Positions 2,769 to 39,650 of a stretch of DNA of 64,000 bases are shown one piece after another. The DNA comes from an uncultured Candidatus Saccharibacteria bacterium (GTDB taxonomy: Bacteria > Patescibacteriota > Minisyncoccia > Ryanbacterales > GWA2-47-10b): assembly GCA_964356915.1 (NCBI GenBank), contig CAYHJF010000001.1, positions 146,200 to 210,199 on the forward strand, in the 5' to 3' direction. The stretch's first letter is position 1. The number at the start of each line of letters is the position of its first letter. A program made the position numbers and the translations under genes. The notes below the pieces were generated by a model. That model saw only the letters and a list, made by a program, of their open reading frames with translations. It searched no databases and was not told the DNA's origin.

Positions 2769-3101
2769 TTACTCGAATGGAGTTCTCGATGGAAGATCCG
2801 CTCCTGACCCTGCTAACACCTCTGCTCTATTCGCCAAAATCGCACGCACGTCATCAAGTAGCTTACGATTCAATCTCTTCACTCCCGGGTCAAGAGAAAG
2901 CTCGGTACCCGAAGGAAGAGGAGCCTCTGTGTGAAATAAAAACACGTATCCATCGTACGCCACAACGCCAACAAGCAATCCTCCAAGCACAATCAGAGAA
3001 AGGCGCCATAATAAGGAGCCGTGGACCAGAATATTTGTCTTTTGCGCGGAACTTTTCCGTCGCAACGAGAAATGCATTGAAATAGGAAGATTAAATTTCA
3101 T
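2769..3101 (-). CDS. hypothetical membrane protein, last gene of the pilus cluster (PilP-like by position only)
   Basis: Start overlaps the pilO-like stop by 4 nt. One TM helix (LSLIVLGGLLVGVVAY). No conserved motif recognised. Confidence 0.35.
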   Translation of the reverse strand: MKFNLPISMHFSLRRKSSAQKTNILVHGSLLWRLSLIVLGGLLVGVVAYDGYVFLFHTEAPLPSGTELSLDPGVKRLNRKLLDDVRAILANRAEVLAGSGADLPSRTPFE

Positions 3102-5240: not shown

Positions 5241-7613
5241 TTATTCAATTTCGTGAAATTCTGTGATATCAAGATTTGCGGACGATGGAGTACAAGAAAG
5301 GCATGCCGCTCCCTTTCTGTACGTAAGAACACTCTTATCACGAATCTCAAGACCTGCCGCAACAACCTGACTCAAAAGAGGATTGTCATTAATTAGCAGC
5401 CTACCAAAGGGCACGAACACGGATCCTCGCAACTTCGCTATAGCTGGATTATCCATTGTAAAAACTTCATTTGAGCTCAATGTGTTGAATGAGTTCTGTA
5501 GAGAATATAGATATACATCGTCTTTATACGCCGGATTTCTTGTTAAGTAGGAATTTTTACATCCCGCGTATGAAGATGGATTACATCCGATAATTTCTGG
5601 GCCGGAGTTGGTGACACTTACCGTTCCATCAAAGAGAACTGCGGCAAAGACTGGATCTGGTGTCGTATTGCCAGGCTTATCGAGATAAATACCGCATTTC
5701 TGAGCCGACGTACAACTAATATTCGCCGCTCCAGTAAAGTAAAAGATGGGCTCCTGATTTGCTGGCACAGATAAGATTAGCTTGCCATTACCTGAGATGG
5801 TCAGGCTGCCATATTTGCCCGGCTGTATCGTAGTTGTCGCACTACCAGCAATACTAATATTTGTACCTTCGGCAACTGGCGTTGTTACATTGTAACCATC
5901 CGCTGTCGTCTTCCATGTCTTAATGAGTGTTTTTGGTGAATTACCATCTCCCTCAGGAGTAAATAACATTGGCAATATACCAGGACCTGACGCAAAAGGA
6001 CCTGTACCTGAAGCTGGCACCGTAGACGTCGCTGGCGCAGGATACGGAGAAGAGTTTACACACTCAGCAGCAACTGACATCGTATTGTCACAATATTTCT
6101 TACAATATGTAGTACTCGGAGATGGACCATCGGCACAATCCTGAGTTGCACCATAAGGCTGTGGAGGATAGCGCACATCGGTACGTGCATATCCATAGTG
6201 GAATGCTCCTGTTGTAGAGGCAAGCTGACCCGCATTACCTTCGACCTGCTGTGCCTTCAAAAGCCCGTCGGTTGCAGCAACACGTTGCGTATCCATCGAC
6301 ATAGAACGCGTGAGAAAGCGCGTATTACTTGCAGAATCTTTTGTCTCTTCTCCTTGAAAAATTTTAAACGCTATCGAGCGTGTTGATGTCAATGTATCCC
6401 AACCCGCAGCCTCTTGGCGTAGCTCGGCATCAACAGCAAATTTAAGTGCTGGCGCGTGCCATTCGGCAGTTCCATATGTTTGGTCAGGAGTTGAACCACA
6501 TGAATCTCCATAACATGCCGGATAATTAATATGATTCGGAATTGTAATTCCCTGCGGCACATACGAATTATTTTTTGACATAAATACCCAATGATTTGAA
6601 GCATCCCCGCCCGATCCTGTAAGCGAAAGAACTAACCAGTATTTTTCACCTTCAACCATTGGAAAGTCACTCGAATAATCAGTAAGAAAATCAAAACACT
6701 TCCACTCAAAATTAGTAGTCGCGTTGCTTGCATTCAGCGTCTTTAATTGATTTGTATGATATGAAGAATCATTCGCATCATATGGAGATCCTCCACGAGT
6801 AGCCGTACTCGATGCCACTGACGCCCCAACGGGATCATTGGGCTCAATTGTTAATTGTAACGCGGGAGGAGTTCCTACTTTTTTCAAATATACACACGCG
6901 CGCATCGCATATGCGGTAACAGCCGGAACAAAAGCCTGCGCCATATCTTTTTTACCTACAGTACCAAGCTTCACCGTAATAGAATCCCAGCTCGCCCAGT
7001 TATCCGATGGCTTATTTACACAGTTACCATTTTCTTTTGGATTGCATTGGGCCCACGTTGAGCTCGCGGCGATTGAATTCGCAACCATAATATCTCCGTA
7101 TACAACGGGAGCAGTGGCACCACTCGCATCAATCGTACTGTTTGAATAAAAAGTAGTAGACTCACCAATATTCACACTGCGAACAGTAGGGCTATCGTTT
7201 ACACGAACTGTCAAAAATCCTATTTGTGCGGCATTATTGAGATCGGGAAAACCGCCATCGAGAGATCCTCCATCAAAGACAATTCGCGCGCTTCGGTGAC
7301 GATTTGAAAGATTACTCCGTGATACAAGCGTGTATGGACCAGTTCCACTAATCGTCACGCTCGCCGTTGCGCTATTGAGCGTAACGCTCTCTGGAGTCGC
7401 ATATGTCTGCGTATTTTGAATACGAGATGCGACTTCTTCTATCCCAGACTCCGCAGTAATAAAACTCTTTTTTGCGTATGCAAGCTCACGAGCACGATTG
7501 AGCTCAGTCACCGCAATATATCCATATGCTCCAAGGATTAAAAGCGAGATAAAAAAGAAAAATAGCACTGCCATCAATGCTGCCTGTCCTTTGGTATATA
7601 AAATCTTATTCAT
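5241..7613 (-). CDS. large (790 aa) pilus-associated extracellular protein with N-terminal pilin-like TM anchor; candidate tip adhesin or GspK/PilX-like minor pilin
   Basis: N-terminus KGQAALMAVLFFFFISLLILGAY resembles a prepilin leader without Glu5 (as in GspK-type minor pilins). The rest is S/T/N/G-rich with many Cys pairs. Sits between pilin genes and pilM. Confidence 0.4.
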   Translation of the reverse strand: MNKILYTKGQAALMAVLFFFFISLLILGAYGYIAVTELNRARELAYAKKSFITAESGIEEVASRIQNTQTYATPESVTLNSATASVTISGTGPYTLVSRSNLSNRHRSARIVFDGGSLDGGFPDLNNAAQIGFLTVRVNDSPTVRSVNIGESTTFYSNSTIDASGATAPVVYGDIMVANSIAASSTWAQCNPKENGNCVNKPSDNWASWDSITVKLGTVGKKDMAQAFVPAVTAYAMRACVYLKKVGTPPALQLTIEPNDPVGASVASSTATRGGSPYDANDSSYHTNQLKTLNASNATTNFEWKCFDFLTDYSSDFPMVEGEKYWLVLSLTGSGGDASNHWVFMSKNNSYVPQGITIPNHINYPACYGDSCGSTPDQTYGTAEWHAPALKFAVDAELRQEAAGWDTLTSTRSIAFKIFQGEETKDSASNTRFLTRSMSMDTQRVAATDGLLKAQQVEGNAGQLASTTGAFHYGYARTDVRYPPQPYGATQDCADGPSPSTTYCKKYCDNTMSVAAECVNSSPYPAPATSTVPASGTGPFASGPGILPMLFTPEGDGNSPKTLIKTWKTTADGYNVTTPVAEGTNISIAGSATTTIQPGKYGSLTISGNGKLILSVPANQEPIFYFTGAANISCTSAQKCGIYLDKPGNTTPDPVFAAVLFDGTVSVTNSGPEIIGCNPSSYAGCKNSYLTRNPAYKDDVYLYSLQNSFNTLSSNEVFTMDNPAIAKLRGSVFVPFGRLLINDNPLLSQVVAAGLEIRDKSVLTYRKGAACLSCTPSSANLDITEFHEIE

Positions 7614-23733: not shown

Positions 23734-26025
23734 TTACGGGTATGTTTCCCAGTAGTCGTTTTCGGATTCGGTCATGTGTGGCGGAAAAACTTTTGGAGAT
23801 TCTGCCGAGTCAAAGACTGGCAAATTTTCCGGAGCATGAGGCTCTGATCGAGGAGGCACTGGAGTTGGAGAAATATTTTTTATTCCGCCATCCGATGCAC
23901 CCGACGAAGGAGACTCATTTTCTTTTTTATCAGCATGATCGCGCATGAGATGCGCGATAAACAATGCCAACGTAATCAACCACAATAACCATCCGATACT
24001 GCACCACTCTTCGAGCCAATTGAGAAAATTGAACAACCCCGCGGTAAGGAATGCCCCAAACGGACGACGCTCGCTAGCAGGCTCAATCGTCGGTTGTTCG
24101 GGTGTTGGAATTGAAACTTCTGGAAACGTAGGGACGGACGGTGTAATCGGTAAAACTGTAGATCCGGAATTCTGTACAGGAATAAATTGTGAAGGTGCTG
24201 GTTGTGTTGCGGGAACACTGACTGTCACTATTGGCGTAAGAACGACTTGTGTACTTGGTGTGCCTGGAGGTTGAAGTGGAACGATGGGGCCATTGCCTCC
24301 TCCGCCACCTCCTCCACCCCCACCACCTCCGCCTCCGGAGCCAGTGTTGGTAGTACCTCCATTATTATTTCCATTATTATTTTTTGGACGAACCTCTATC
24401 ACGACATCTCGTGTTGTAGTTGCTCGTCCATCTGATGCGAAGAATTTTGCGGTCGATGTACCAATTTGCGACTCGCTCGGAGTCCAAACAAATTGATTTG
24501 TACTCGTCGAGTACGTAGCACCATTTGGTAATTCGAATGTGATCGTAACAAGATCACCATCAGGATCATTTACACTTTCGAAAAATGAAACTGACTCTCC
24601 AACAATCGCGGTCGCGGATGTCGGACCGAAAAATACTGGAGCGTGATTTCCTTCAAAAACAAAAATGATTACTTCTCGCGTCGTGGTCGCGATTCCATCT
24701 GAAGCGAAAAATCTCACCGTCGATGTACCACTCTGCATTTCTGTTGGCGTCCAGACAAACTCTCCTGCCGCGCTGTACGTGGCACCACTTGGAAGTTCGC
24801 TGGTAACTTCAACGAGATCTCCATCGGGGTCGTTTACTGTTTCAAAAAATGAAACGGGACTACCTACGATAGTGATTGCTGATGTTGGACCGAAAAATAC
24901 TGGAGCGTGATTATTACTTTCAAGAACGTAAACGATAACCTCTTGTGTTGTCGTTCCCGTTCCATCAAACGCGTAGAATGTTGTAGTCGCAGTACCTGCA
25001 ACTACGGGAGTCCACTCAAAAAGTCCTGTGCTTGTGGCATACGATGCGCCGTCTGGCAAAATCGCCGAGACTACCACCAAATCACCATCAAGATCATTAG
25101 CCGTCTTTGAGAAACTCACGGAAGCGCCAACCGTTGTCGTCGCTGATGTTGGGCCAAAAAACGTAGGAAGATGATTACTATCTGAATCATCCAAAGGAGA
25201 AACTACAATAATAACTTCCCGTGTTGTTGTGCCAACTCCGTCAAACCCACGAAATAATACCGTCGATGTACCACTCTGCATTTCTGTTGGCGTCCAGACA
25301 AACTCTCCTGCCGCGCTGTACGTGGCACCACTTGGAAGTTCGCTGGTAACTTCAACGAGATCTCCATCGGGGTCGTTTACTGTTTCAAAAAATGAAACGG
25401 GACTACCTACGATAGTGATTGCTGATGTTGGACCAACCCAACTTGGAAGCTGATTTACTAATGGATCTTTGAGAACAGTAACGAGAACATTATATGTCGA
25501 CGTTCCTGTACCATCAAAACCAAAGAAATGGATAGGATATGAACCCTGCGCAGTCGGTGTCCATGTGAACTTCCCTATTATGCCGTCATACGATGCTCCA
25601 CTTGGAAGATCGCTGGTAACCTCTACCAAATCTCCATCAGGATCATTGACCGTGATAAAAAATGATACGGGATTACCCGTAACCGCAAACGCAGTTACCG
25701 GACCTGCAAAAACAGGGAGTTGATTTGTAACAAGAGAAGAAAACGCAGTCATCATAACTGCCGAGTTTTCAGATGCGTCATCTCCAGCATCAGGAAGCGT
25801 ATACGAATTCTTAGATTCCCCCCGATAATCTGATTCCGATGACTCACTTTCTACAACTTCTTCTACAACTACAGAAGACTCTGATTCTTCGGAGACTGAA
25901 CCTTCAGTTCCCGTGGAAATGATAGTCGCATCAGACGACCCTAAATCAGAAATCTTCTCACCAAGTGCATACAATGGGGAAACAACCAATGTAAGAGAAA
26001 AGAATATTGCAAATATTCTTTTCAT
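23734..26025 (-). CDS. cell-surface protein with six tandem roughly 95-aa Ig/cadherin-like repeats (DPDGD motif), Gly/Asn linker, Pro-rich stalk and C-terminal TM anchor
   Basis: Signal peptide MKRIFAIFFSLTLVVSPLYALG. Repeats of the form FFGPTSA..VG.PVSFF.TVNDPDGDLVEVTS.LP.GA.Y......F.WTPT. G15 run and NNNGNNNGG. PxxP-rich segment. Hydrophobic helix near the C-terminus. Confidence 0.6.
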   Translation of the reverse strand: MKRIFAIFFSLTLVVSPLYALGEKISDLGSSDATIISTGTEGSVSEESESSVVVEEVVESESSESDYRGESKNSYTLPDAGDDASENSAVMMTAFSSLVTNQLPVFAGPVTAFAVTGNPVSFFITVNDPDGDLVEVTSDLPSGASYDGIIGKFTWTPTAQGSYPIHFFGFDGTGTSTYNVLVTVLKDPLVNQLPSWVGPTSAITIVGSPVSFFETVNDPDGDLVEVTSELPSGATYSAAGEFVWTPTEMQSGTSTVLFRGFDGVGTTTREVIIVVSPLDDSDSNHLPTFFGPTSATTTVGASVSFSKTANDLDGDLVVVSAILPDGASYATSTGLFEWTPVVAGTATTTFYAFDGTGTTTQEVIVYVLESNNHAPVFFGPTSAITIVGSPVSFFETVNDPDGDLVEVTSELPSGATYSAAGEFVWTPTEMQSGTSTVRFFASDGIATTTREVIIFVFEGNHAPVFFGPTSATAIVGESVSFFESVNDPDGDLVTITFELPNGATYSTSTNQFVWTPSESQIGTSTAKFFASDGRATTTRDVVIEVRPKNNNGNNNGGTTNTGSGGGGGGGGGGGGGGNGPIVPLQPPGTPSTQVVLTPIVTVSVPATQPAPSQFIPVQNSGSTVLPITPSVPTFPEVSIPTPEQPTIEPASERRPFGAFLTAGLFNFLNWLEEWCSIGWLLWLITLALFIAHLMRDHADKKENESPSSGASDGGIKNISPTPVPPRSEPHAPENLPVFDSAESPKVFPPHMTESENDYWETYP

Positions 26026-26217: not shown

Positions 26218-27894
26218 CTAGTTGCAACCAAGTCCTTCATCGGTTGCACCATCACAATCATTGTCGAGGTGATCGCAACCAAACAAAGATTCGGGCTGAG
26301 ACGCAATGTCTGGGTTACAGAACAAGTAATGAGTAGGATTTGATGTAACACACACCGCATGTCCAACCGCACACTGACCAAGTTGGCCAGTATTGCAGGT
26401 CTGTCCACCTTGAGGATTCCCCTCGTCGACGGAGCCGTCACAATCATTGTCGATATTGTCACAAAGTTCGCTCGCTGCTTGCGCGGGGATGCACGCACCC
26501 CATGCGTTATTCGAGCACGTCTGTGTGCCGTTACGACATGCGCCAACAGCGCCGGAAGCGGTACACGCCCGTTGCTGACCGTTGCTACATACGAGCAACG
26601 TAGTCGACGTTGTCGTACTCGTCGAAGTCGTAGTCGATGACGTGCTCGAAGTTGTTGAAGTCGAGGTAGTCGTCGATGACGATGTCGTTGAGGTTGACGT
26701 AGTTGAAGTGGTTGTACTAGTCGAGGTCGACGTTGTCGTAGGCCTTGATGTACTCGTCGTGGTCGATGTAGACGTTGTAGACGTGGATGTAGTCGTCGTA
26801 CTTGTGGTGGTAGTTGTTGAAGTCGTACTCACCCTAGTAGTTGACGTTGTCGTACTCGTCGAAGTCGTAGTCGATGACGTGCTCGAAGTTGTTGAAGTCG
26901 AGGTAGTCGTCGATGACGATGTCGTTGAGGTTGACGTAGCGATAACTCCACGACACACATTCGGATACGACTTAAACTGCGGTACCGCAAGGATATCCGT
27001 GCAGTCAATCTTGAAATCAGCAACGCACTGAACGCACGTTGCCATATCGAGCATCCCGCCAATAGAGCGGGCGCAAATCTGACCATTTGGTCGTACTACA
27101 TCGGTACAAGTTGAAATGAATCCAACTTGTACGGGCGTAAAGTCGGTCGGATCTTCAGGAAATCCGCAGCGACGATCAGCGCCGCCACACGCCTGACAAA
27201 TCTTCTCGAGCATACGCTCTCGTTGAACTGCAACTAAACGGTCGGCTGCTCCATCGCCAGGCAAATGACAGTCAGTACTATGTGTACCGGCAATACGATT
27301 TGTCCAGCATGTTGAGAGCACTTTCGCCTTCTTACGTTGAAAGGCAACGGCATACTTGAGATTCGCACGCTGACACTTGAGTACTGCGGCCGTAGGATTT
27401 GGCTGCAATGCGTCAGCATAAAGATCGACTGACTGATCAACTGCGATCTTCCCAATACAGGAAAGGCAGTGGTATACGTCATCAAAATTGTTAATGGAGT
27501 TATCACAGCCCCTGTTTTCGAAATCAGGACACTGACTCCCCCACCCAATATCACTAGGCGCGACATCATTAACCCCATCACAATCGCCATCGCAGCACTG
27601 CGATCGAATATTGCGATGAAGACGAATATCACGCCTTGCGAGCCGACGCGATTGAGCCGGATCTGTCACACAGTCGATTCCCCAAGGCAGATAACCCCTG
27701 AGCCTCTTATCCTCGCATGACAGCTGATCGCGAAGACGACCATCTACATATGCGGCAAAACCCTTACTAAGGGTAGTTTGACACGTATTCATATTGGAAG
27801 CGGATACTGGCGCAGCAAATATCGACGCCGAGAGAAAAACAAACAATGCGATTGCTCGCATGAGACTCCTTCCATTTCTTGCCCTAAATTTCAA
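26218..27894 (-). CDS. secreted Cys-rich protein with a roughly 150-aa mucin-like Ser/Thr low-complexity region
   Basis: Signal peptide (MRAIALFVFLSASIFAAPVSA). Cys-rich N- and C-terminal domains (CxxxxC, DNDCDG repeats). Central TSTSTTSSSTTT... tract encoded by tandemly repeated DNA. Confidence 0.55.
   Translation of the reverse strand: MKFRARNGRSLMRAIALFVFLSASIFAAPVSASNMNTCQTTLSKGFAAYVDGRLRDQLSCEDKRLRGYLPWGIDCVTDPAQSRRLARRDIRLHRNIRSQCCDGDCDGVNDVAPSDIGWGSQCPDFENRGCDNSINNFDDVYHCLSCIGKIAVDQSVDLYADALQPNPTAAVLKCQRANLKYAVAFQRKKAKVLSTCWTNRIAGTHSTDCHLPGDGAADRLVAVQRERMLEKICQACGGADRRCGFPEDPTDFTPVQVGFISTCTDVVRPNGQICARSIGGMLDMATCVQCVADFKIDCTDILAVPQFKSYPNVCRGVIATSTSTTSSSTTTSTSTTSSTSSTTTSTSTTTSTTRVSTTSTTTTTSTTTTSTSTTSTSTTTSTSRPTTTSTSTSTTTSTTSTSTTSSSTTTSTSTTSSTSSTTTSTSTTTSTTLLVCSNGQQRACTASGAVGACRNGTQTCSNNAWGACIPAQAASELCDNIDNDCDGSVDEGNPQGGQTCNTGQLGQCAVGHAVCVTSNPTHYLFCNPDIASQPESLFGCDHLDNDCDGATDEGLGCN
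26596..26940. repeat. tandem DNA repeat (unit about 242 bp, two copies with roughly 100-bp exact identity) inside the S/T-rich coding region
   Basis: gtcgtactcgtcgaagtcgtagtcgatgacgtgctcgaagttgttgaagtcgaggtagtcgtcgatgacgatgtcgttgaggttgacgtag occurs at 26609-26700 and again at 26849-26940. Confidence 0.7.
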
Positions 27895-28135
27895 GGGGCG
27901 CTAGAGCTGAAACTACAATAAAATTAGAAAAAAATCAAGTATCACAAACAAAAAAAATACCCGCGGCTACGGCAAAAAAATCTTAGAACAAGATCTAAAA
28001 CAAAAGATTAAGTAGTTTTTTCGAAAAAACCTGAGAATCTTAGACCAAAAACATCCACCCCTAATACTCGATACTCTGCGCAGAGTATCAATAAACTCTC
28101 ACAAAGCACTAAATCAATTGCACGCCACGTTTTTG

Positions 28136-28206
28136 TCGGAGAGCCGGGAATCGAACCCGGTCTACCTGCTCCCAAAGCAGGTGTACTGCCGGTATACTAC
28201 TCTCCG
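28136..28206 (-). tRNA. tRNA-Pro (anticodon TGG), no encoded CCA
   Basis: rc = CGGAGAGTAGTATACCGGCAGTACACCTGCTTTGGGAGCAGGTAGACCGGGTTCGATTCCCGGCTCTCCGA. Anticodon stem cctgc/gcagg, loop ttTGGga. D arm nearly identical to tRNA-Pro(GGG) at 1024. Confidence 0.7.
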
Positions 28207-32435: not shown

Positions 32436-33254
32436 ATGAAGCGCGCGACTGAAGCAGAAATCTTTCAGGCATACACAAAACGCGTCCGAATACTGACTCC
32501 CGAATATACCGAGGATCTAATCCCATGGCATCTCGATGGTAATGCATCGCCCGACCCGGATCTTTTCCGTTATATACAACATATCGAAGCGCTTACAGCA
32601 GTAGTCTACGGACCCTATCTTGAACTGACTCCGTCTGGACGCCATCCCGTTATCTCAGTATTCTTAAAACGCTGGGTAACGGAAGAAACAACTCACGGAG
32701 AACTCTTTGCGAGATATCTTCAACTGCGCGGTATCGAAATTCATCCGCTCCCACAGCATACTGGGCTCGATAGATTTTTCGAAGTTATTCGAACGCTACC
32801 GGAAAATCTTGCCGGTAGCGCATTCATCACACTTCACATGGTATGGGGTGCAGCAAATGAATTTACGACGCTCGCGCTCTACCAACGTATACGAAAACTT
32901 TCCCGCGACCCTGTTTTGAGCGCGATACTCGATGGAGTCATAATCGAAGAGGGGAGACATGCTATGTTTTATAACGACATAGCACGACTACGTCTCGGAA
33001 AATCGCGCTTTGAGCAAATCTTTGTGCGTACCGTGATGAAACTCCTCTGGCAACCTGTTGGATCGGGCGACCTCGATCCTACCCCCGCGCTACAAATATT
33101 TGCCGGCGATGGAATCCACATATTTTGCGACAAGGTCACCGCACGAATTAATCGCTTACCAGGCCTTGCCGATCTCTGTCTCACTCTTGCGGTTCAGTCC
33201 GCAATGCAAAAACGTAATATTCCTTTTCTTCCAGAGAAAAGACCGACCACCTGA
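32436..33254 (+). CDS. ferritin-like di-iron carboxylate protein (acyl-ACP-desaturase-like EExxH x2)
   Basis: Two EExxH motifs about 90 aa apart (EETTHGE, EEGRHAM), as in the di-iron desaturase/ferritin-like superfamily. Confidence 0.4.
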   Translation: MKRATEAEIFQAYTKRVRILTPEYTEDLIPWHLDGNASPDPDLFRYIQHIEALTAVVYGPYLELTPSGRHPVISVFLKRWVTEETTHGELFARYLQLRGIEIHPLPQHTGLDRFFEVIRTLPENLAGSAFITLHMVWGAANEFTTLALYQRIRKLSRDPVLSAILDGVIIEEGRHAMFYNDIARLRLGKSRFEQIFVRTVMKLLWQPVGSGDLDPTPALQIFAGDGIHIFCDKVTARINRLPGLADLCLTLAVQSAMQKRNIPFLPEKRPTT

Positions 33255-33320
33255 TTGGTGGTTTTTTTATTTTTATCTCTACCAAATGAAAGACTAACCG
33301 CAACGGTTAGTCTTTCATTT
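33248..33320 (+). terminator. two tandem hairpin terminators after the di-iron protein gene
   Basis: accacc-tgatt-ggtggt + T8, then atgaaagactaaccg-caa-cggttagtctttcat + T6. Confidence 0.65.
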
Positions 33321-33323
33321 TTT

Positions 33324-33355
33324 GTCGGAATGCCGAGAATCGAACTCGGCCTTCA
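33324..33355 (-). pseudogene. tRNA 3-prime-half fragment (T arm plus acceptor), a near-duplicate of the tRNA-Pro(CGG) 3-prime end
   Basis: gaaggccgagttcgattctcggcattccgac vs gaaggccgagttcgattctcggcaccccgac of the intact tRNA. No matching 5-prime half. Preceded by a 9-bp hairpin gagaatgcc-ggg-ggcattctc. Confidence 0.5.
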
Positions 33356-33412
33356 CAATTTTCTTTTCGAAAATTCTAGAGAATGCCCCCGGCATTCTCG
33401 TTGAACACTTAG

Positions 33413-33483
33413 TCGGGGTGCCGAGAATCGAACTCGGCCTTCGCGCACCCGAAGCGCGCGTACTGCCGATATACTACACCCCG
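33413..33483 (-). tRNA. tRNA-Pro (anticodon CGG), no encoded CCA
   Basis: rc = CGGGGTGTAGTATATCGGCAGTACGCGCGCTTCGGGTGCGCGAAGGCCGAGTTCGATTCTCGGCACCCCGA. Anticodon stem cgcgc/gcgcg, loop ttCGGgt. An alternative register would give TCG (Arg), but the D arm and acceptor match the other two Pro tRNAs. Confidence 0.6.
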
Positions 33484-33489
33484 ACCAAG

Positions 33490-33533
33490 TACTCAACCCC
33501 AAATCGTGCGTACTGCCGGCATACTACATCCCG
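33490..33533 (-). pseudogene. tRNA-Pro 5-prime-half fragment (acceptor plus D arm identical to tRNA-Pro(GGG) 5-prime half), truncated
   Basis: rc = CGGGATGTAGTATGCCGGCAGTACGCACGATTTGGGG..., with no T arm or 3-prime acceptor following. Confidence 0.5.
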
Positions 33534-33578
33534 ATAGTATTCATGCGATACCAATACGCACTATCGATATACACAATA

Positions 33579-35045
33579 TTATTTCACCCAATGTTTTTTC
33601 TTGATCTCTCCTACCTTTTCTTCTTCGAGAGCCGATGACTTATTCTTTGCTTCTTTTGCTAAATTTGCAAGTTCTGAATCAGAGAGAGAAACGAGCTCAT
33701 TGAGACGTTCTGTAAGATATTTTTTTGTATTACGCTTTGGATCATCAAGCACTTCTTCGAGGAGCGCGTTGAGAAGCATTCCTATGCGCGGCCCTGGATC
33801 AAGCTTTCCAATCTTCATAACCGCATCTCCATTAATTTTTAGCATCTTCACTGAGATGGGATCGCGTGAAAGTTTTTCGATAAGAAAACGAAAGTGACGC
33901 AACTTATAAGGCTCTGCCTTAGGTACGCCTGATCCGATCCGATCGCACACACGAACCTTGATCAAGTCTTCCATATTTTCTGGACCAACTTTTCTAATAA
34001 GACGCCTCACCGATCCTTCGCCAACCTCATCCACGTTGTAGTAAAAAAGATGAAACCGAACAAGAGTCGTTACCTTTGCGACTAATTCACTCGGATACTT
34101 CAAACGCTTGAGGATTTCTTCTGTCATTGTCCCACCGACAATTTCATGCCCATAAAACGTAGAGTCTGGACCGTCTCCACGCTTTGCCCGCGGTTTACCA
34201 ACGTCATGTAACAAAGCGGCGAGCCGTACATCGAGCGCCCAATGCTTTGACGCCGCATGACGCAACGCGTATAGATTGTGCTCCCATACAGAAAAAATAT
34301 GATGCTTGTTTTGCCCCACAGCAAACCCCTCTTCGAGTTCTGGCATTACATATTTTAAAACACCGAGTTCACGCATCCGATCTAAAACCACATGCGGCTC
34401 CGGAGACATAATAATTTTTGAAAATTCATCTCGAATACGTTCCTGAGAAATAAATCTCAAAAGCTTTGCTTCTTTTTTTATCGCGGCCTCTGTCTCTGGC
34501 TCAAGTGAAAATCCGAGCTCAGCGACCAAACGAAGTGCTCGCATAATACGTAGCGCGTCTTCTTTAAATCGCTCGACTGGTTTTCCAACCGCACGTAAGA
34601 TACCTTCTTTAAAATCTTTTTTTCCGTTAAATAAATCTATCACTTCATCCGTTCGTACATTGAGCGCCACGGCATTGATAGTAAAATCGCGACGAGCAAG
34701 ATCATCCTTGAGAGATTTCCCAAATTCAACTTTATCCGGATGACGCTTATCAGAGTACTTTGATTCTGTGCGATAAGGTGTTACCTCAACCATCTTCAGT
34801 GATTCGTCAGAGACATTTTTAGGAAATATGGCAACGGTGCCAAAATCATTTTCATAAACACTGTCAGGAAATATTTTTTGAATTTCTGACGGTGTCGCGC
34901 TCGTCGTAATATCCCAATCCTTTGGTTTGCGCCCTATTAAAAGATCTCTCACGCATCCGCCAACGATATACGCTTCAAAATGAGCGGCTTCAAGTGCTTC
35001 TATAACAGCGACTATTTCTTTAGGAATCGGAGCTTGTTTAGACAT
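33579..35045 (-). CDS. cca: CCA-adding tRNA nucleotidyltransferase with C-terminal HD domain
   Basis: Pol-beta-like head (FEAYIVGGCVRDLLIGRKPKDWDITT), RRDFTINA, HD motif (LAALLHDVGKP). 488 aa. Consistent with tRNAs lacking an encoded CCA. Confidence 0.8.
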   Translation of the reverse strand: MSKQAPIPKEIVAVIEALEAAHFEAYIVGGCVRDLLIGRKPKDWDITTSATPSEIQKIFPDSVYENDFGTVAIFPKNVSDESLKMVEVTPYRTESKYSDKRHPDKVEFGKSLKDDLARRDFTINAVALNVRTDEVIDLFNGKKDFKEGILRAVGKPVERFKEDALRIMRALRLVAELGFSLEPETEAAIKKEAKLLRFISQERIRDEFSKIIMSPEPHVVLDRMRELGVLKYVMPELEEGFAVGQNKHHIFSVWEHNLYALRHAASKHWALDVRLAALLHDVGKPRAKRGDGPDSTFYGHEIVGGTMTEEILKRLKYPSELVAKVTTLVRFHLFYYNVDEVGEGSVRRLIRKVGPENMEDLIKVRVCDRIGSGVPKAEPYKLRHFRFLIEKLSRDPISVKMLKINGDAVMKIGKLDPGPRIGMLLNALLEEVLDDPKRNTKKYLTERLNELVSLSDSELANLAKEAKNKSSALEEEKVGEIKKKHWVK

Positions 35046-38164: not shown

Positions 38165-39624
38165 CGCTTCATCATACCTCCGATAAGACTGGTAACCCGC
38201 CCAATTGCGGCCGACACTTTCGATTTCTTGGGATCCTTCTTCTTAACCGTCTCGAACACTTTCGTCGCTTGAGCGGTAAGAGCGCCGATACTAAGAGGTC
38301 CGCCACCATCTCCCGAGTTAATGACGACAGCAACATTACCTTCCTTGATCGCGTCCATTTGACGCTCGAGGAGGCCCAGCGTTGCAGCCTGCTCAGGAGA
38401 AAGACCAGCACCATCTCGAATCTTGGTAATCCGAGCGGCTTCACCTTCGCCCTCAAGTTCGCGGCGTACTTTTTCGGCAGCACCGAGTCGTTCGATACCA
38501 CGTCCTTCGCCGTCAGCCTCGAGGAAACGAGCGTCGCCCGTTGCCCGCCCTTGGATGCGCTTGCGTCGCGCTTCTTCGGTTGCCTTACTAAGCACAACGT
38601 CAACGATCATGAAGCGCTTCAGTTTGATACCCCACTCATTGAGTTGAGCCTCTACTGAAGCGCAGATCTGCGAGTTAAGTGAACTTTCTTTTTCTTTCTT
38701 ACCATCGTCCTTGTTATCAATAATTTTCGCCACCTTCTCAGCAAGCACATCATCAACGTTCATGCCACCGAGCATTGTACGAATACGATCCTCGATCATT
38801 GAGAGAACGGCATGGATATAATCATCGACAAGATATGTAGCCTCAAAAGCTGATTTCTGATCGCGACGGTACTCGACCTCAATGATCAATTCACACTTGA
38901 GACCAACCGTATCATCAGCGACATCAACCTGACTCCGGAACTCAACTTTCGAATCCTTTCCGTCACGCCTGAGCTCTCTTTGAAGTGCGATCTCTTCTTC
39001 TGTTGTCCCTTCGGGGAAACCAAGAAGCCACAATGTCAATTTGCGATCTCCGATATAGAGCCGCTTCTTTACGTAGAAGATTCCAGGGATAATGAGATAG
39101 AATCCCTGTGGAAGAGTCTTGCAATAGATACCAAAGAGCTCAACCACATCAACGTATTGTTGAGGAATGATACGTGCACATCCATAGAAAAAAACAGCGA
39201 AAACGATAGCAGGCCATACTTTTGCCGCGCCCGAGAGAAAAAATACTCCCGCGATCGCAAACAAAAATAAAATACCCACTATGGTAAATGAAAAACGCAT
39301 CCAAATCTTCGGCAGAAAACCAAAACCCTGATCCTCTGTATCCAGAAGAGTGGGATTTTTTTTGTGACGATGCCACATGTAGAACCCGCCAAAAGCAAAT
39401 ACCAATGCTGTCACTTCGAACAAGAAGAATGGTGAATATGAATCTTTCACCCACCATGCAAGAAATACAGCTATACCCATAAGAAGACCATCGATAATAA
39501 TCTGCCAACGTTTCATAGATGCCTTTGCACCCACAAGAAGACCATCGACAATCATATGCCAACGTTTCATAGATGCCTTTGCACCCACAAGAAGACCATC
39601 GACAATCATATGCCAACGTTTCAT
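38122..39624 (-). CDS. SPFH/band-7 (flotillin-like) membrane protein with tandemly repeated N-terminus
   Basis: Two TM helices. SPFH core (YVDVVELFGIYCKTLPQGFYLIIPG...). C-terminal coiled-coil E/A/R-rich flotillin-like tail. Three in-frame MKRW(H/Q)(M/I)I(V/I)DGLL starts; the likely true start is the third (about 39516). Confidence 0.55.
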   Translation of the reverse strand: MKRWHMIVDGLLVGAKASMKRWHMIVDGLLVGAKASMKRWQIIIDGLLMGIAVFLAWWVKDSYSPFFLFEVTALVFAFGGFYMWHRHKKNPTLLDTEDQGFGFLPKIWMRFSFTIVGILFLFAIAGVFFLSGAAKVWPAIVFAVFFYGCARIIPQQYVDVVELFGIYCKTLPQGFYLIIPGIFYVKKRLYIGDRKLTLWLLGFPEGTTEEEIALQRELRRDGKDSKVEFRSQVDVADDTVGLKCELIIEVEYRRDQKSAFEATYLVDDYIHAVLSMIEDRIRTMLGGMNVDDVLAEKVAKIIDNKDDGKKEKESSLNSQICASVEAQLNEWGIKLKRFMIVDVVLSKATEEARRKRIQGRATGDARFLEADGEGRGIERLGAAEKVRRELEGEGEAARITKIRDGAGLSPEQAATLGLLERQMDAIKEGNVAVVINSGDGGGPLSIGALTAQATKVFETVKKKDPKKSKVSAAIGRVTSLIGGMMKRWKSGGTPTSGGTP

Positions 39625-39650
39625 AGACGCCTTTCTTGCCCTTTATCACG
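39490..39650. repeat. three tandem copies of a 54-bp repeat covering the SPFH gene start and RBS region
   Basis: ccaacgtttcatagatgcctttgcacccacaagaagaccatcgacaatcatatg unit. Period exactly 54 (copies anchored at 39505, 39559, 39613). The third copy is diverged (gacgcctttcttgccc). Confidence 0.7.

Follow-up and report, generated by a model that had tools for sequence, protein, structure and literature searches.

What do two pieces of a tRNA-Pro gene represent when an intact tRNA-Pro(CGG) gene lies between them? The question arises at positions 33324–33533 (minus strand) of the 64-kb stretch of DNA analyzed here (the window), which carries a cca gene (CCA-adding enzyme) whose relatives are Patescibacteria of the Parcubacteria/Paceibacteria type. 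The pieces had originally been predicted to be independent orphans, most readily explained as scars of integrase activity. We found instead that they are the two halves of one tRNA-Pro gene, which a 138-nt insert splits in the anticodon arm, between positions 38 and 39. With its complementary arms (helix H1), this insert forms a hairpin-shaped module that carries the complete tRNA-Pro(CGG) gene at its tip. Hereafter, the interrupted gene is the outer gene, the intact one is the inner gene and the whole arrangement is a nested unit.

The flanking pieces are halves of one tRNA-Pro gene

ARAGORN and Rfam call a single tRNA in the interval, the inner tRNA-Pro(CGG) at 33412–33483. The pieces on either side of it are real tRNA-Pro sequences, as originally predicted. 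A repeat search recovered 33498–33534 as a direct repeat of the inner 5′ part (84% identity over 37 nt) and 33321–33354 as a direct repeat of the inner 3′ part (91% identity over 34 nt). Furthermore, a tRNA-Pro profile (nhmmer) matched 33490/1–33533 to model positions 1–43/44 (E = 1.5e-5) and 33324–33356 to model positions 40–72 (E = 1.3e-4). The extents of the pieces had to be redrawn. The 5′ piece, initially given as 44 nt, ends at tRNA position 38 (33533–33497), and its last ~7 nt (TTGAGTA) are a helix strand that pairs with the inner trailer. The 3′ piece, initially given as 32 nt, is 35 nt long (33358–33324, positions 39–74) and includes the 3′ strand of the anticodon stem, TTGTG. The acceptor and D-arm sequences of the 5′ piece, described as identical to those of tRNA-Pro(GGG), match at 24/25 positions, with G14 in place of A14.

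The two halves are complementary. In the acceptor stem, CGGGATG and CATTCCG form 7/7 pairs, including A5:U68 and G4.U69, and in the anticodon stem, CACGA and TTGTG form 5/5. The inner counterparts are CGGGGTG/CACCCCG in the acceptor stem and CGCGC/GCGCG in the anticodon stem; thus, the A5:U68 and A31:U39 pairs are common to the outer halves and absent from the inner gene. Twelve positions differ between outer and inner gene, eight of them in stems, and pairing is preserved at all eight through three double compensatory changes (5:68, 28:42 and 31:39) and two G.U pairs. Joined, the halves form a 72-nt cloverleaf that ARAGORN calls as tRNA-Pro(UGG).

On the native sequence, the intron mode of ARAGORN reported the inner gene and did not call the outer one, because the inner call masks it. 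When the inner tRNA was shuffled or deleted, the program reported a single tRNA over both pieces with a 138-nt intron, although this call shifts the splice junction and bears the label tRNA-Leu(UAA). The predictor check proposed with the original prediction therefore unites the fragments in one intron-containing tRNA, at odds with unrelated fragments.

The insert has a conserved, hairpin-shaped fold

The insert spans 33496–33359, and 66 of its 138 nt are not part of a tRNA; 55 nt separate the inner gene from the outer 3′ half. H1 forms between the 14 nt that precede the inner tRNA and the 14 nt that begin with its discriminator base. In both the minimum free energy (MFE) and centroid folds, H1 and the inner acceptor stem are stacked in one continuous helix of 22 bp. 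The 9-bp hairpin of the original prediction is also present (33399–33379, GAGAATGCC-GGG-GGCATTCTC; hairpin 2). It is followed by hairpin 3, the final 2 nt of which overlap the 3′ strand of the outer anticodon stem. As a whole, the 213-nt unit folds into a cloverleaf within a cloverleaf, with an MFE of −98.7 kcal/mol (z = −7.1 versus shuffles).

Three related units (L052, L056 and L077), located at a tRNA-Pro(UGG) gene on the opposite side of cca, keep the same order of H1, inner tRNA, hairpin 2, a 3–4-nt joiner and hairpin 3. In the alignment of these units with that of the window, 94.4% of the cells are paired, compared with 80.8% in shuffled alignments (0/500 reach the observed value) and 31–52% in slid controls. 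Both-side changes occur at 31 pairs versus 13.5 in shuffles, in a test that comprises four sequences and a structure derived from those same sequences. The helix formed by H1 and the inner acceptor stem is 98.9% paired and has both-side changes at 14/22 pairs. Hairpin 2 (4/8), hairpin 3 (3/7) and the outer acceptor stem (2/7) also have both-side changes. In the H1 of family A, G.U oppositions fill 6 cells and A.C oppositions none.

Nested tRNA genes recur among relatives

To place the unit in context, we collected 160 related loci with cca as the syntenic anchor and searched them with type-specific tRNA profiles (nhmmer). The order tRNA-Arg, (tRNA-Lys), cca, tRNA-Pro(CGG), tRNA-Ala(CGC) is conserved across relatives, and the succession of cca and tRNA-Pro(CGG) is kept in dozens of loci. 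In the closest relatives (72–78% cca identity), a simple tRNA-Pro(CGG) gene lies a few bases past the cca stop, with no tRNA-Pro nesting. Partial copies of the same type accompany 16/120 intact tRNA-Pro genes (both halves in 7) and 9/51 tRNA-Ala genes (both halves in 4). They also lie beside 9/122 tRNA-Arg, 5/42 tRNA-Gly and 2/26 tRNA-Lys genes, with both halves in none of these. The layout thus touches approximately 1/8 of the tRNA-Pro and 1/6 of the tRNA-Ala genes in the sampled relatives.

The polarity of the partial copies is absolute: 5′ parts lie upstream of the intact tRNA of the same type in 26 cases and downstream in none, and 3′ parts lie downstream in 23 cases and upstream in none. 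Wherever both halves were detected (15 pairs, about a dozen once duplicate loci are removed), a single intact tRNA of that type lies between them; none of the pairs is an interrupted gene without an inner copy. Two to three dozen inner genes are flanked by strong leader-trailer helices. Nesting is patchy when the relatives are ordered by cca similarity. Nested units are, in other words, a recurrent and patchily distributed class, represented in many relatives from groundwater.

The units differ in insertion site and arms. A second family interrupts tRNA-Pro(CGG) between positions 35 and 36, just after TTCG (L013, L021 and L047), and has the arms CCCCGTTAGAAATT/AATTTCTAACGGGG. In L096, these arms enclose tRNA-Ala as cargo, so that the H1 motif of this family, CCCGTTAGA.../...TCTAACGGG, is found around both tRNA-Pro and tRNA-Ala. 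The tRNA-Ala(CGC) gene, next in the syntenic block, is nested in the closest relative (L001:6451-6634) and in a distant one (L069:5777-5965). These two Ala units have common arms (CCGCCCACCAT/ATGGTGGGCGG) and near-identical inner genes, and a compensatory pair (A28:U42 versus G28:C42) distinguishes their outer anticodon stems. In nested tRNA-Arg(CCG) (L019:2943-3110) and tRNA-Gly(GCC) (L076:159-558) units, the inner gene interrupts the outer one in its T-loop region and not in its anticodon loop. The arms in L019 form a 15-bp helix (CGCCCCCACACCTAT/ATAGGTGTGGGGGTG).

We also identified stand-alone palindromes with CCCGTTAGA.../...TCTAACGGG arms and no tRNA (L058:2745-2790, L027:1414-1472, L045:4941-5054 and L122:339-405), some of which bear short flanking direct repeats (TAAA, TGAA, TTCA). 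They look like a dispersed palindromic repeat family in Parcubacteria. Along with the lack of tRNA-Pro nesting in the relatives at 72–78% cca identity, the spread of this motif over different cargoes and stand-alone sites speaks for gain and loss of the inserts. Separately, several relic 3′ halves (L005:~2160-2222, L007:~5565-5621, L010:~3010-3090 and L037:~6150-6215) contain a conserved T-loop insert of ~40 nt with two hairpins. This insert lies directly after TTCG, in the arrangement GGTTCG/CCCTATCATTCGATAGGG CG CCCCGTCGGATGACGGGG CG/ATTCC (slashes mark its ends), and its stems covary between genomes. Two or three 3′ relics are stacked at several loci. Some outer 5′ halves (L047:6428-6464, L063:~5748-5786, L067:~5826-5845 and L106:~2791-2826) carry a hairpin and a conserved tail, CAGGC, between the D arm and position 26.

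The inner gene resembles a working tRNA and the outer gene a relic

The inner gene has the features of a functional elongator tRNA: an uninterrupted cloverleaf, recognition by tRNA models and conservation relative to its orthologues. Compared with the simple tRNA-Pro(CGG) gene in L001, the closest relative, it is identical at 68/72 positions and the joined outer halves at 60/72. The inner gene is presumed to be the working tRNA-Pro(CGG). The outer gene retains an intact cloverleaf, but it lacks continuity, its position 14 is G where A is universal, and its anticodon is UGG where the syntenic gene has CGG. Furthermore, the window has a separate tRNA-Pro(UGG) gene at 28135.

Outer anticodons have also drifted elsewhere, to AGG in a tRNA-Pro unit (L009) and to UUC and UUU in the tRNA-Ala units of L001 and L069; the two Ala outer genes keep the G3:U70 identity pair. 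In other genomes, outer copies have mutated or replaced T loops, or extra hairpins after the D arm or in the T loop, and often survive as a single half. From sequence comparisons, the evidence favors outer halves that are a decaying relic and make no decoding tRNA, and a functional tRNA is probably not produced from the outer gene.

Proposed model: a replacement tRNA carried into its cognate gene

The reading that we favor, with moderate confidence, is that a tRNA gene has been interrupted by a small palindromic insert with a replacement copy of the cognate tRNA, and that the outer halves are a decaying relic of the interrupted gene. A single transcript would probably cover the whole unit and terminate at the hairpin following the outer 3′ half. 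Ordinary tRNA end-processing would then release the inner tRNA for CCA addition, perhaps after a double-strand-specific RNase has cut the 22-bp leader-trailer helix. The outer halves would no longer yield a decoding tRNA, although the relic could still pair with itself. After insertion, they would decay, and deletion between the direct repeats could restore a simple gene. Candidate routes into the cognate gene include transposition, homology-assisted replacement with the tRNA halves as arms, or something else. Such an insertion would be tolerated in small genomes because the insert brings a replacement for the tRNA that it interrupts; these hosts probably carry few spare tRNA genes.

Several observations weigh against this reading. 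No transposase, integrase or target-site duplication was found in the 64-kb window, and the H1 and hairpin 2 sequences are single-copy within it; the case for mobility therefore comes from the distribution of the units. The cargo always matches its target, so random insertion does not suffice and strong selection, homology-dependent spread or an unknown form of targeting would be needed. It is also the inner and not the outer gene that resembles the resident gene of the relatives, and either copy may be the foreign one. The outer stems in the window are wholly intact, with compensatory pairs, which could mean that constraint on the RNA continues and that the outer gene is not a passive remnant. 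Compensatory pairs also set the outer acceptor stem apart from the inner one in many units, and in some of these the remainder is nearly identical. Gene conversion that spares the ends, or selection against outer-inner mispairing, could produce this pattern. Lastly, G.U oppositions outnumber A.C oppositions 23:12 (p = 0.09) in the leader-trailer helices overall, a ratio that does not choose between a role as RNA and an inverted repeat in the DNA.

Alternative explanations

The intact outer stems also fit a functional nested architecture, in which selection keeps the outer fold and H1 as an RNA scaffold that could, for example, insulate the inner tRNA from misfolding with its near-identical flanks or present it to processing enzymes. 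The covariation in H1, hairpin 2 and hairpin 3 and the G.U cells of the family-A H1 are consistent with such a scaffold. So are the compensatory acceptor differences in at least 7 of about a dozen tRNA-Pro units read by eye (e.g., L005, L013, L021, L047, L052 and L077). In L047 and L052, the rest of the outer and inner genes is nearly identical, and the acceptor pattern would reduce mispairing between them. However, a simple gene suffices in the close relatives, many outer copies are visibly decaying or half-lost, and gene conversion that stops short of the homology ends also yields acceptor-only differences. With an overall G.U versus A.C test that is not significant, we regard the scaffold as unlikely. 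Alternatively, the unit could be a true intron or split tRNA, in which removal of the 138 nt and ligation of the outer halves yield a working tRNA-Pro(UGG), with the inner tRNA as a second, intron-encoded product. No tRNA position is missing from the outer sequence, which folds as a cloverleaf and is broken in the anticodon loop, where, to our knowledge, all known bacterial tRNA introns lie. Moreover, the second nested family breaks exactly at 35/36, and Patescibacteria are rich in group I tRNA introns, including at this position (PMC13011429). Yet no group I intron or ribozyme matched in Rfam over 32800–34000 at E ≤ 10, and sequence inspection revealed no bulge-helix-bulge (BHB) motif conserved among homologues. 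The 66 nt of the insert that are not tRNA are too short for a group I core. The tRNA-Pro(UGG) at 28135 would make the product redundant with an existing gene, the outer anticodon differs from the orthologous CGG, position 14 is a G, and the Ala outer genes, if spliced, would decode Glu and Lys codons. Thus, the original suggestion of a split tRNA holds in that the pieces are halves of one gene, and a working product of these halves is quite improbable.

The scenarios first proposed for the locus do not account for these features. Partial tRNA copies beside tRNA genes are a classic signature of integrative elements (PMC9897764), and the stacked 3′ relics downstream of some tRNAs (L010, L037 and L106) resemble serial integrations. 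The original prediction was right that the locus bears the trace of DNA inserted in a tRNA gene, but not about the integrase. An attachment-site scar should comprise a hybrid but intact tRNA, an integrase within island DNA, and a displaced repeat of one tRNA end, normally the 3′ (rarely the 5′) end. We found no integrase and no island among the neighboring open reading frames (cca and a di-iron protein gene). Both neighbors are syntenic with relatives, the di-iron gene downstream of the unit having a homologue at the equivalent place in L001. The 3′ piece also lies 55 nt away from the intact gene, and two complementary halves surround a complete, different allele in which both acceptor strands differ from the outer ones. 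Nor does integration predict the strict polarity and the conserved helices, and we consider integrase-mediated integration and excision highly improbable. Two partial tandem duplications, or chance recombination among the three tRNA-Pro paralogues, would draw on the long identical stretches common to these genes. A 9-mer upstream of the outer gene (TGAATACT, 33534–33545) resembles the inner leader TGAGTACT (33484–33496, minus strand) in a local alignment (p ~0.08). However, comparison of the spacers with the outside flanks gave no match in any of six units (p = 0.08–0.99), and the spacers hold conserved helices instead. Duplication does not predict that leader and trailer are mutually complementary, nor that the insert with H1, hairpin 2 and hairpin 3 is shared with units at a different tRNA-Pro gene (L052, L056 and L077). 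Local rearrangement is, like integration, a very improbable source of the unit. An assembly artefact from repeated tRNA k-mers or strain mixtures could be suspected in a sequence derived from a metagenome-assembled genome with short repeats of 34–37 nt. Against this, a contig from a Hainich groundwater metagenome (L081) is identical over 33200–33600, although it possibly belongs to the same assembly. Nested architecture is also present in independent assemblies from other studies and different sites, and homologous units in many of them have insert-specific sequence and covariation. Because the architecture recurs in this way, a one-off misassembly is very unlikely, and we find the artefact scarcely credible.

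Comparison with known systems

Like tRNA-integrated genomic islands and prophages, the unit has foreign DNA inside a tRNA gene (anticodon- or T-loop region), keeps a working tRNA and leaves partial copies. Unlike them, it has an insert of only 138 nt with no integrase, and what the insert supplies is an entire tRNA instead of a new 3′ end. In addition, the old gene keeps complementary 5′ and 3′ halves, and the ends of the insert form a helix around the cargo. Bacterial group I tRNA introns, such as the 35/36 introns of Patescibacteria (PMC13011429), are similar in that they place an intervening sequence in the anticodon loop in the same phylum, and the sister nested family breaks at the same position. 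The unit differs in having no detectable core, an insert that is too short, a tRNA inside it and an interrupted gene that shows decay.

Archaeal split, permuted and multi-intron tRNA genes also have halves that pair into a cloverleaf and extra helices formed by adjoining sequences. Relatives of the unit with insertions at the T loop and at the D/anticodon junction can be likened to the multi-intron genes. Similarly, the archaeal tRNA-Trp intron with a C/D box RNA contains a functional RNA within a tRNA intervening sequence. In contrast to these systems, the unit has a bacterial host (a Patescibacteria genome with a C1:G72 tRNA-Pro), no BHB motif, and halves that are contiguous around a complete paralogous tRNA, and its outer product is predicted to stay unligated.

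Other parallels come from short repeats. Rickettsia palindromic elements (RPE), repetitive extragenic palindromes and bacterial interspersed mosaic elements (REP/BIME), and miniature inverted-repeat transposable elements (MITEs) are short non-coding hairpin inserts with inverted-repeat ends that are tolerated in genes. The H1 arms of 11–14 bp that flank the cargo agree with the definition of a MITE, as does a length of 138 nt, too short for a transposase or integrase. The dispersed stand-alone palindromes with a related H1 motif likewise resemble palindromic repeat elements. These elements differ from the unit, which has a tRNA gene at the hairpin tip, a cognate tRNA as its host, no target-site duplication and no second copy in the 64-kb window. 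Finally, the intervening sequences of bacterial 23S rRNA, which RNase III removes, place a long stem in a structural RNA gene. By analogy, the stem of the nested unit would be a plausible substrate for a double-strand RNase, with no need for religation. Here, however, a cut in the anticodon loop would disable the host RNA, and the useful product would be the cargo.

Full-text searches of the literature returned no account of one bacterial tRNA gene nested within another; the closest publications deal with group I introns in tRNAs of Patescibacteria (PMC13011429) and with fragments of tRNA genes that integrated elements leave behind (PMC9897764). The units may therefore represent an undescribed class in Patescibacteria: a tRNA hairpin module that targets itself to the cognate loop, perhaps guided by the cargo or by tRNA halves acting as homology arms, or an outer tRNA matured by a route that is neither group I nor BHB. 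We view this proposal as rather doubtful. If true, self-targeting or maturation by such a route would be a new mechanism of bacterial tRNA gene turnover or tRNA maturation.

The favored reading, a replacement tRNA in a cognate gene, changes the annotation of the locus to one working tRNA-Pro(CGG) and one disrupted tRNA-Pro gene rather than two unrelated scars. Standard tRNA finders do not report this layout because they call the inner gene only. It points to a route by which essential tRNA genes could be invaded and replaced in very small genomes without loss of function. Furthermore, it offers a testable system to study tRNA gene turnover, the processing of leader-trailer helices and possible cognate targeting in uncultivated bacteria.

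Locus features and additional observations

The features of the unit and its flanks are collected in Table 1. The hairpin directly after the outer 3′ half is strong and is probably the end of the transcription unit. A promoter scan between cca and the nested unit gave no match to the sigma-70 consensus.

Table 1. Positions of the nested tRNA-Pro unit and flanking features in the window.
Feature	Position	Strand	Sequence and basis
Outer tRNA-Pro 5′ half (positions 1–38)	33497..33533	-	CGGGATG TA GTAT GCCGGCA GTAC G CACGA TTTGGGG: acceptor CGGGATG, D arm, anticodon-stem CACGA, loop TTTGGGG (anticodon TGG); nhmmer, direct repeat D6
Helix H1, 5′ strand (inner tRNA leader)	33484..33497	-	GTTGAGTACTTGGT; pairs with 33413-33400 (MFE and centroid folds)
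Inner intact tRNA-Pro(CGG)	33412..33483	-	ARAGORN; Rfam tRNA, 53.3 bits, E = 2.3e-10
Helix H1, 3′ strand (starts with inner discriminator A73 and next base)	33400..33413	-	ACTAAGTGTTCAAC; complementary to 33497-33484, G.U pairs included
Hairpin 2, 9 bp	33379..33399	-	GAGAATGCC-GGG-GGCATTCTC; MFE fold; homologues in L052, L056, L077
Hairpin 3, 7 bp	33357..33375	-	AATTTTC-GAAAA-GAAAATT; MFE fold; position kept in L052, L056, L077
Outer tRNA-Pro 3′ half (positions 39–74)	33324..33358	-	TTGTG AAGG CCGAG TTCGATT CTCGG CATTCCG A C: anticodon-stem TTGTG, variable loop AAGG, T arm, CATTCCG, A73, C; nhmmer, direct repeat D7
Hairpin directly 3′ of outer 3′ half	33287..33317	-	TGAAAGACTAACCG-TTG-CGGTTAGTCTTTCA, then TTT; read from sequence
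Bidirectional terminator-like site	33245-33263	both	Terminator scan
cca gene (CCA-adding enzyme), directly upstream	33579..35045	-	Pfam PolyA_pol, PolyA_pol_RNAbd and HD domains

Several candidate identities for the insert were tried and rejected. Rfam searches of 32800–34000 (E ≤ 10) and of the whole window (gathering threshold) returned only tRNAs and no group I intron or ribozyme. In a BHB motif, a 4-bp helix lies between two 3-nt bulges at the exon-intron junctions. When the junctions in the window were threaded into this motif by hand, at best 3/4 weak A-U/G-U pairs formed; H1 and hairpin 3 compete with these pairs, and the homologue L052 lacks them. An apparent target-site duplication, TTGAGTA/TTGTGAA, proved to be H1 plus anticodon stem, and no direct repeat links 33497/33496 with 33359/33358. 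A phage or viral origin found no blastn match in phage records and no match of the family-B pattern in viral contigs, and no high-copy repeat was found in the 64-kb window. The resemblance of H1 to an integron attC site (GTTRRRY/RYYYAAC) was dismissed, as the box order is wrong and the motif is unconserved in homologues.

Additional observations concern the tRNA-Pro genes and repeats of the window. None of its three tRNA-Pro genes (1024-1094, 28135-28206 and 33412-33483) encodes the 3′ CCA, and the nested unit sits directly downstream of the gene for the CCA-adding enzyme. A resemblance of the TGAATACT/TGAGTACT type was found in none of five other nested units. At 24404-25725 and 26600-26939, we identified diverged direct repeats of ~90–260 nt (62–87% identity, spacings of ~267 and 543 nt) accompanied by a dense array of short-period (9–15 nt) repeats, which together are probably a repetitive coding region. 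The window also contains a tandem repeat of 3 × 54 nt at 39475-39636.

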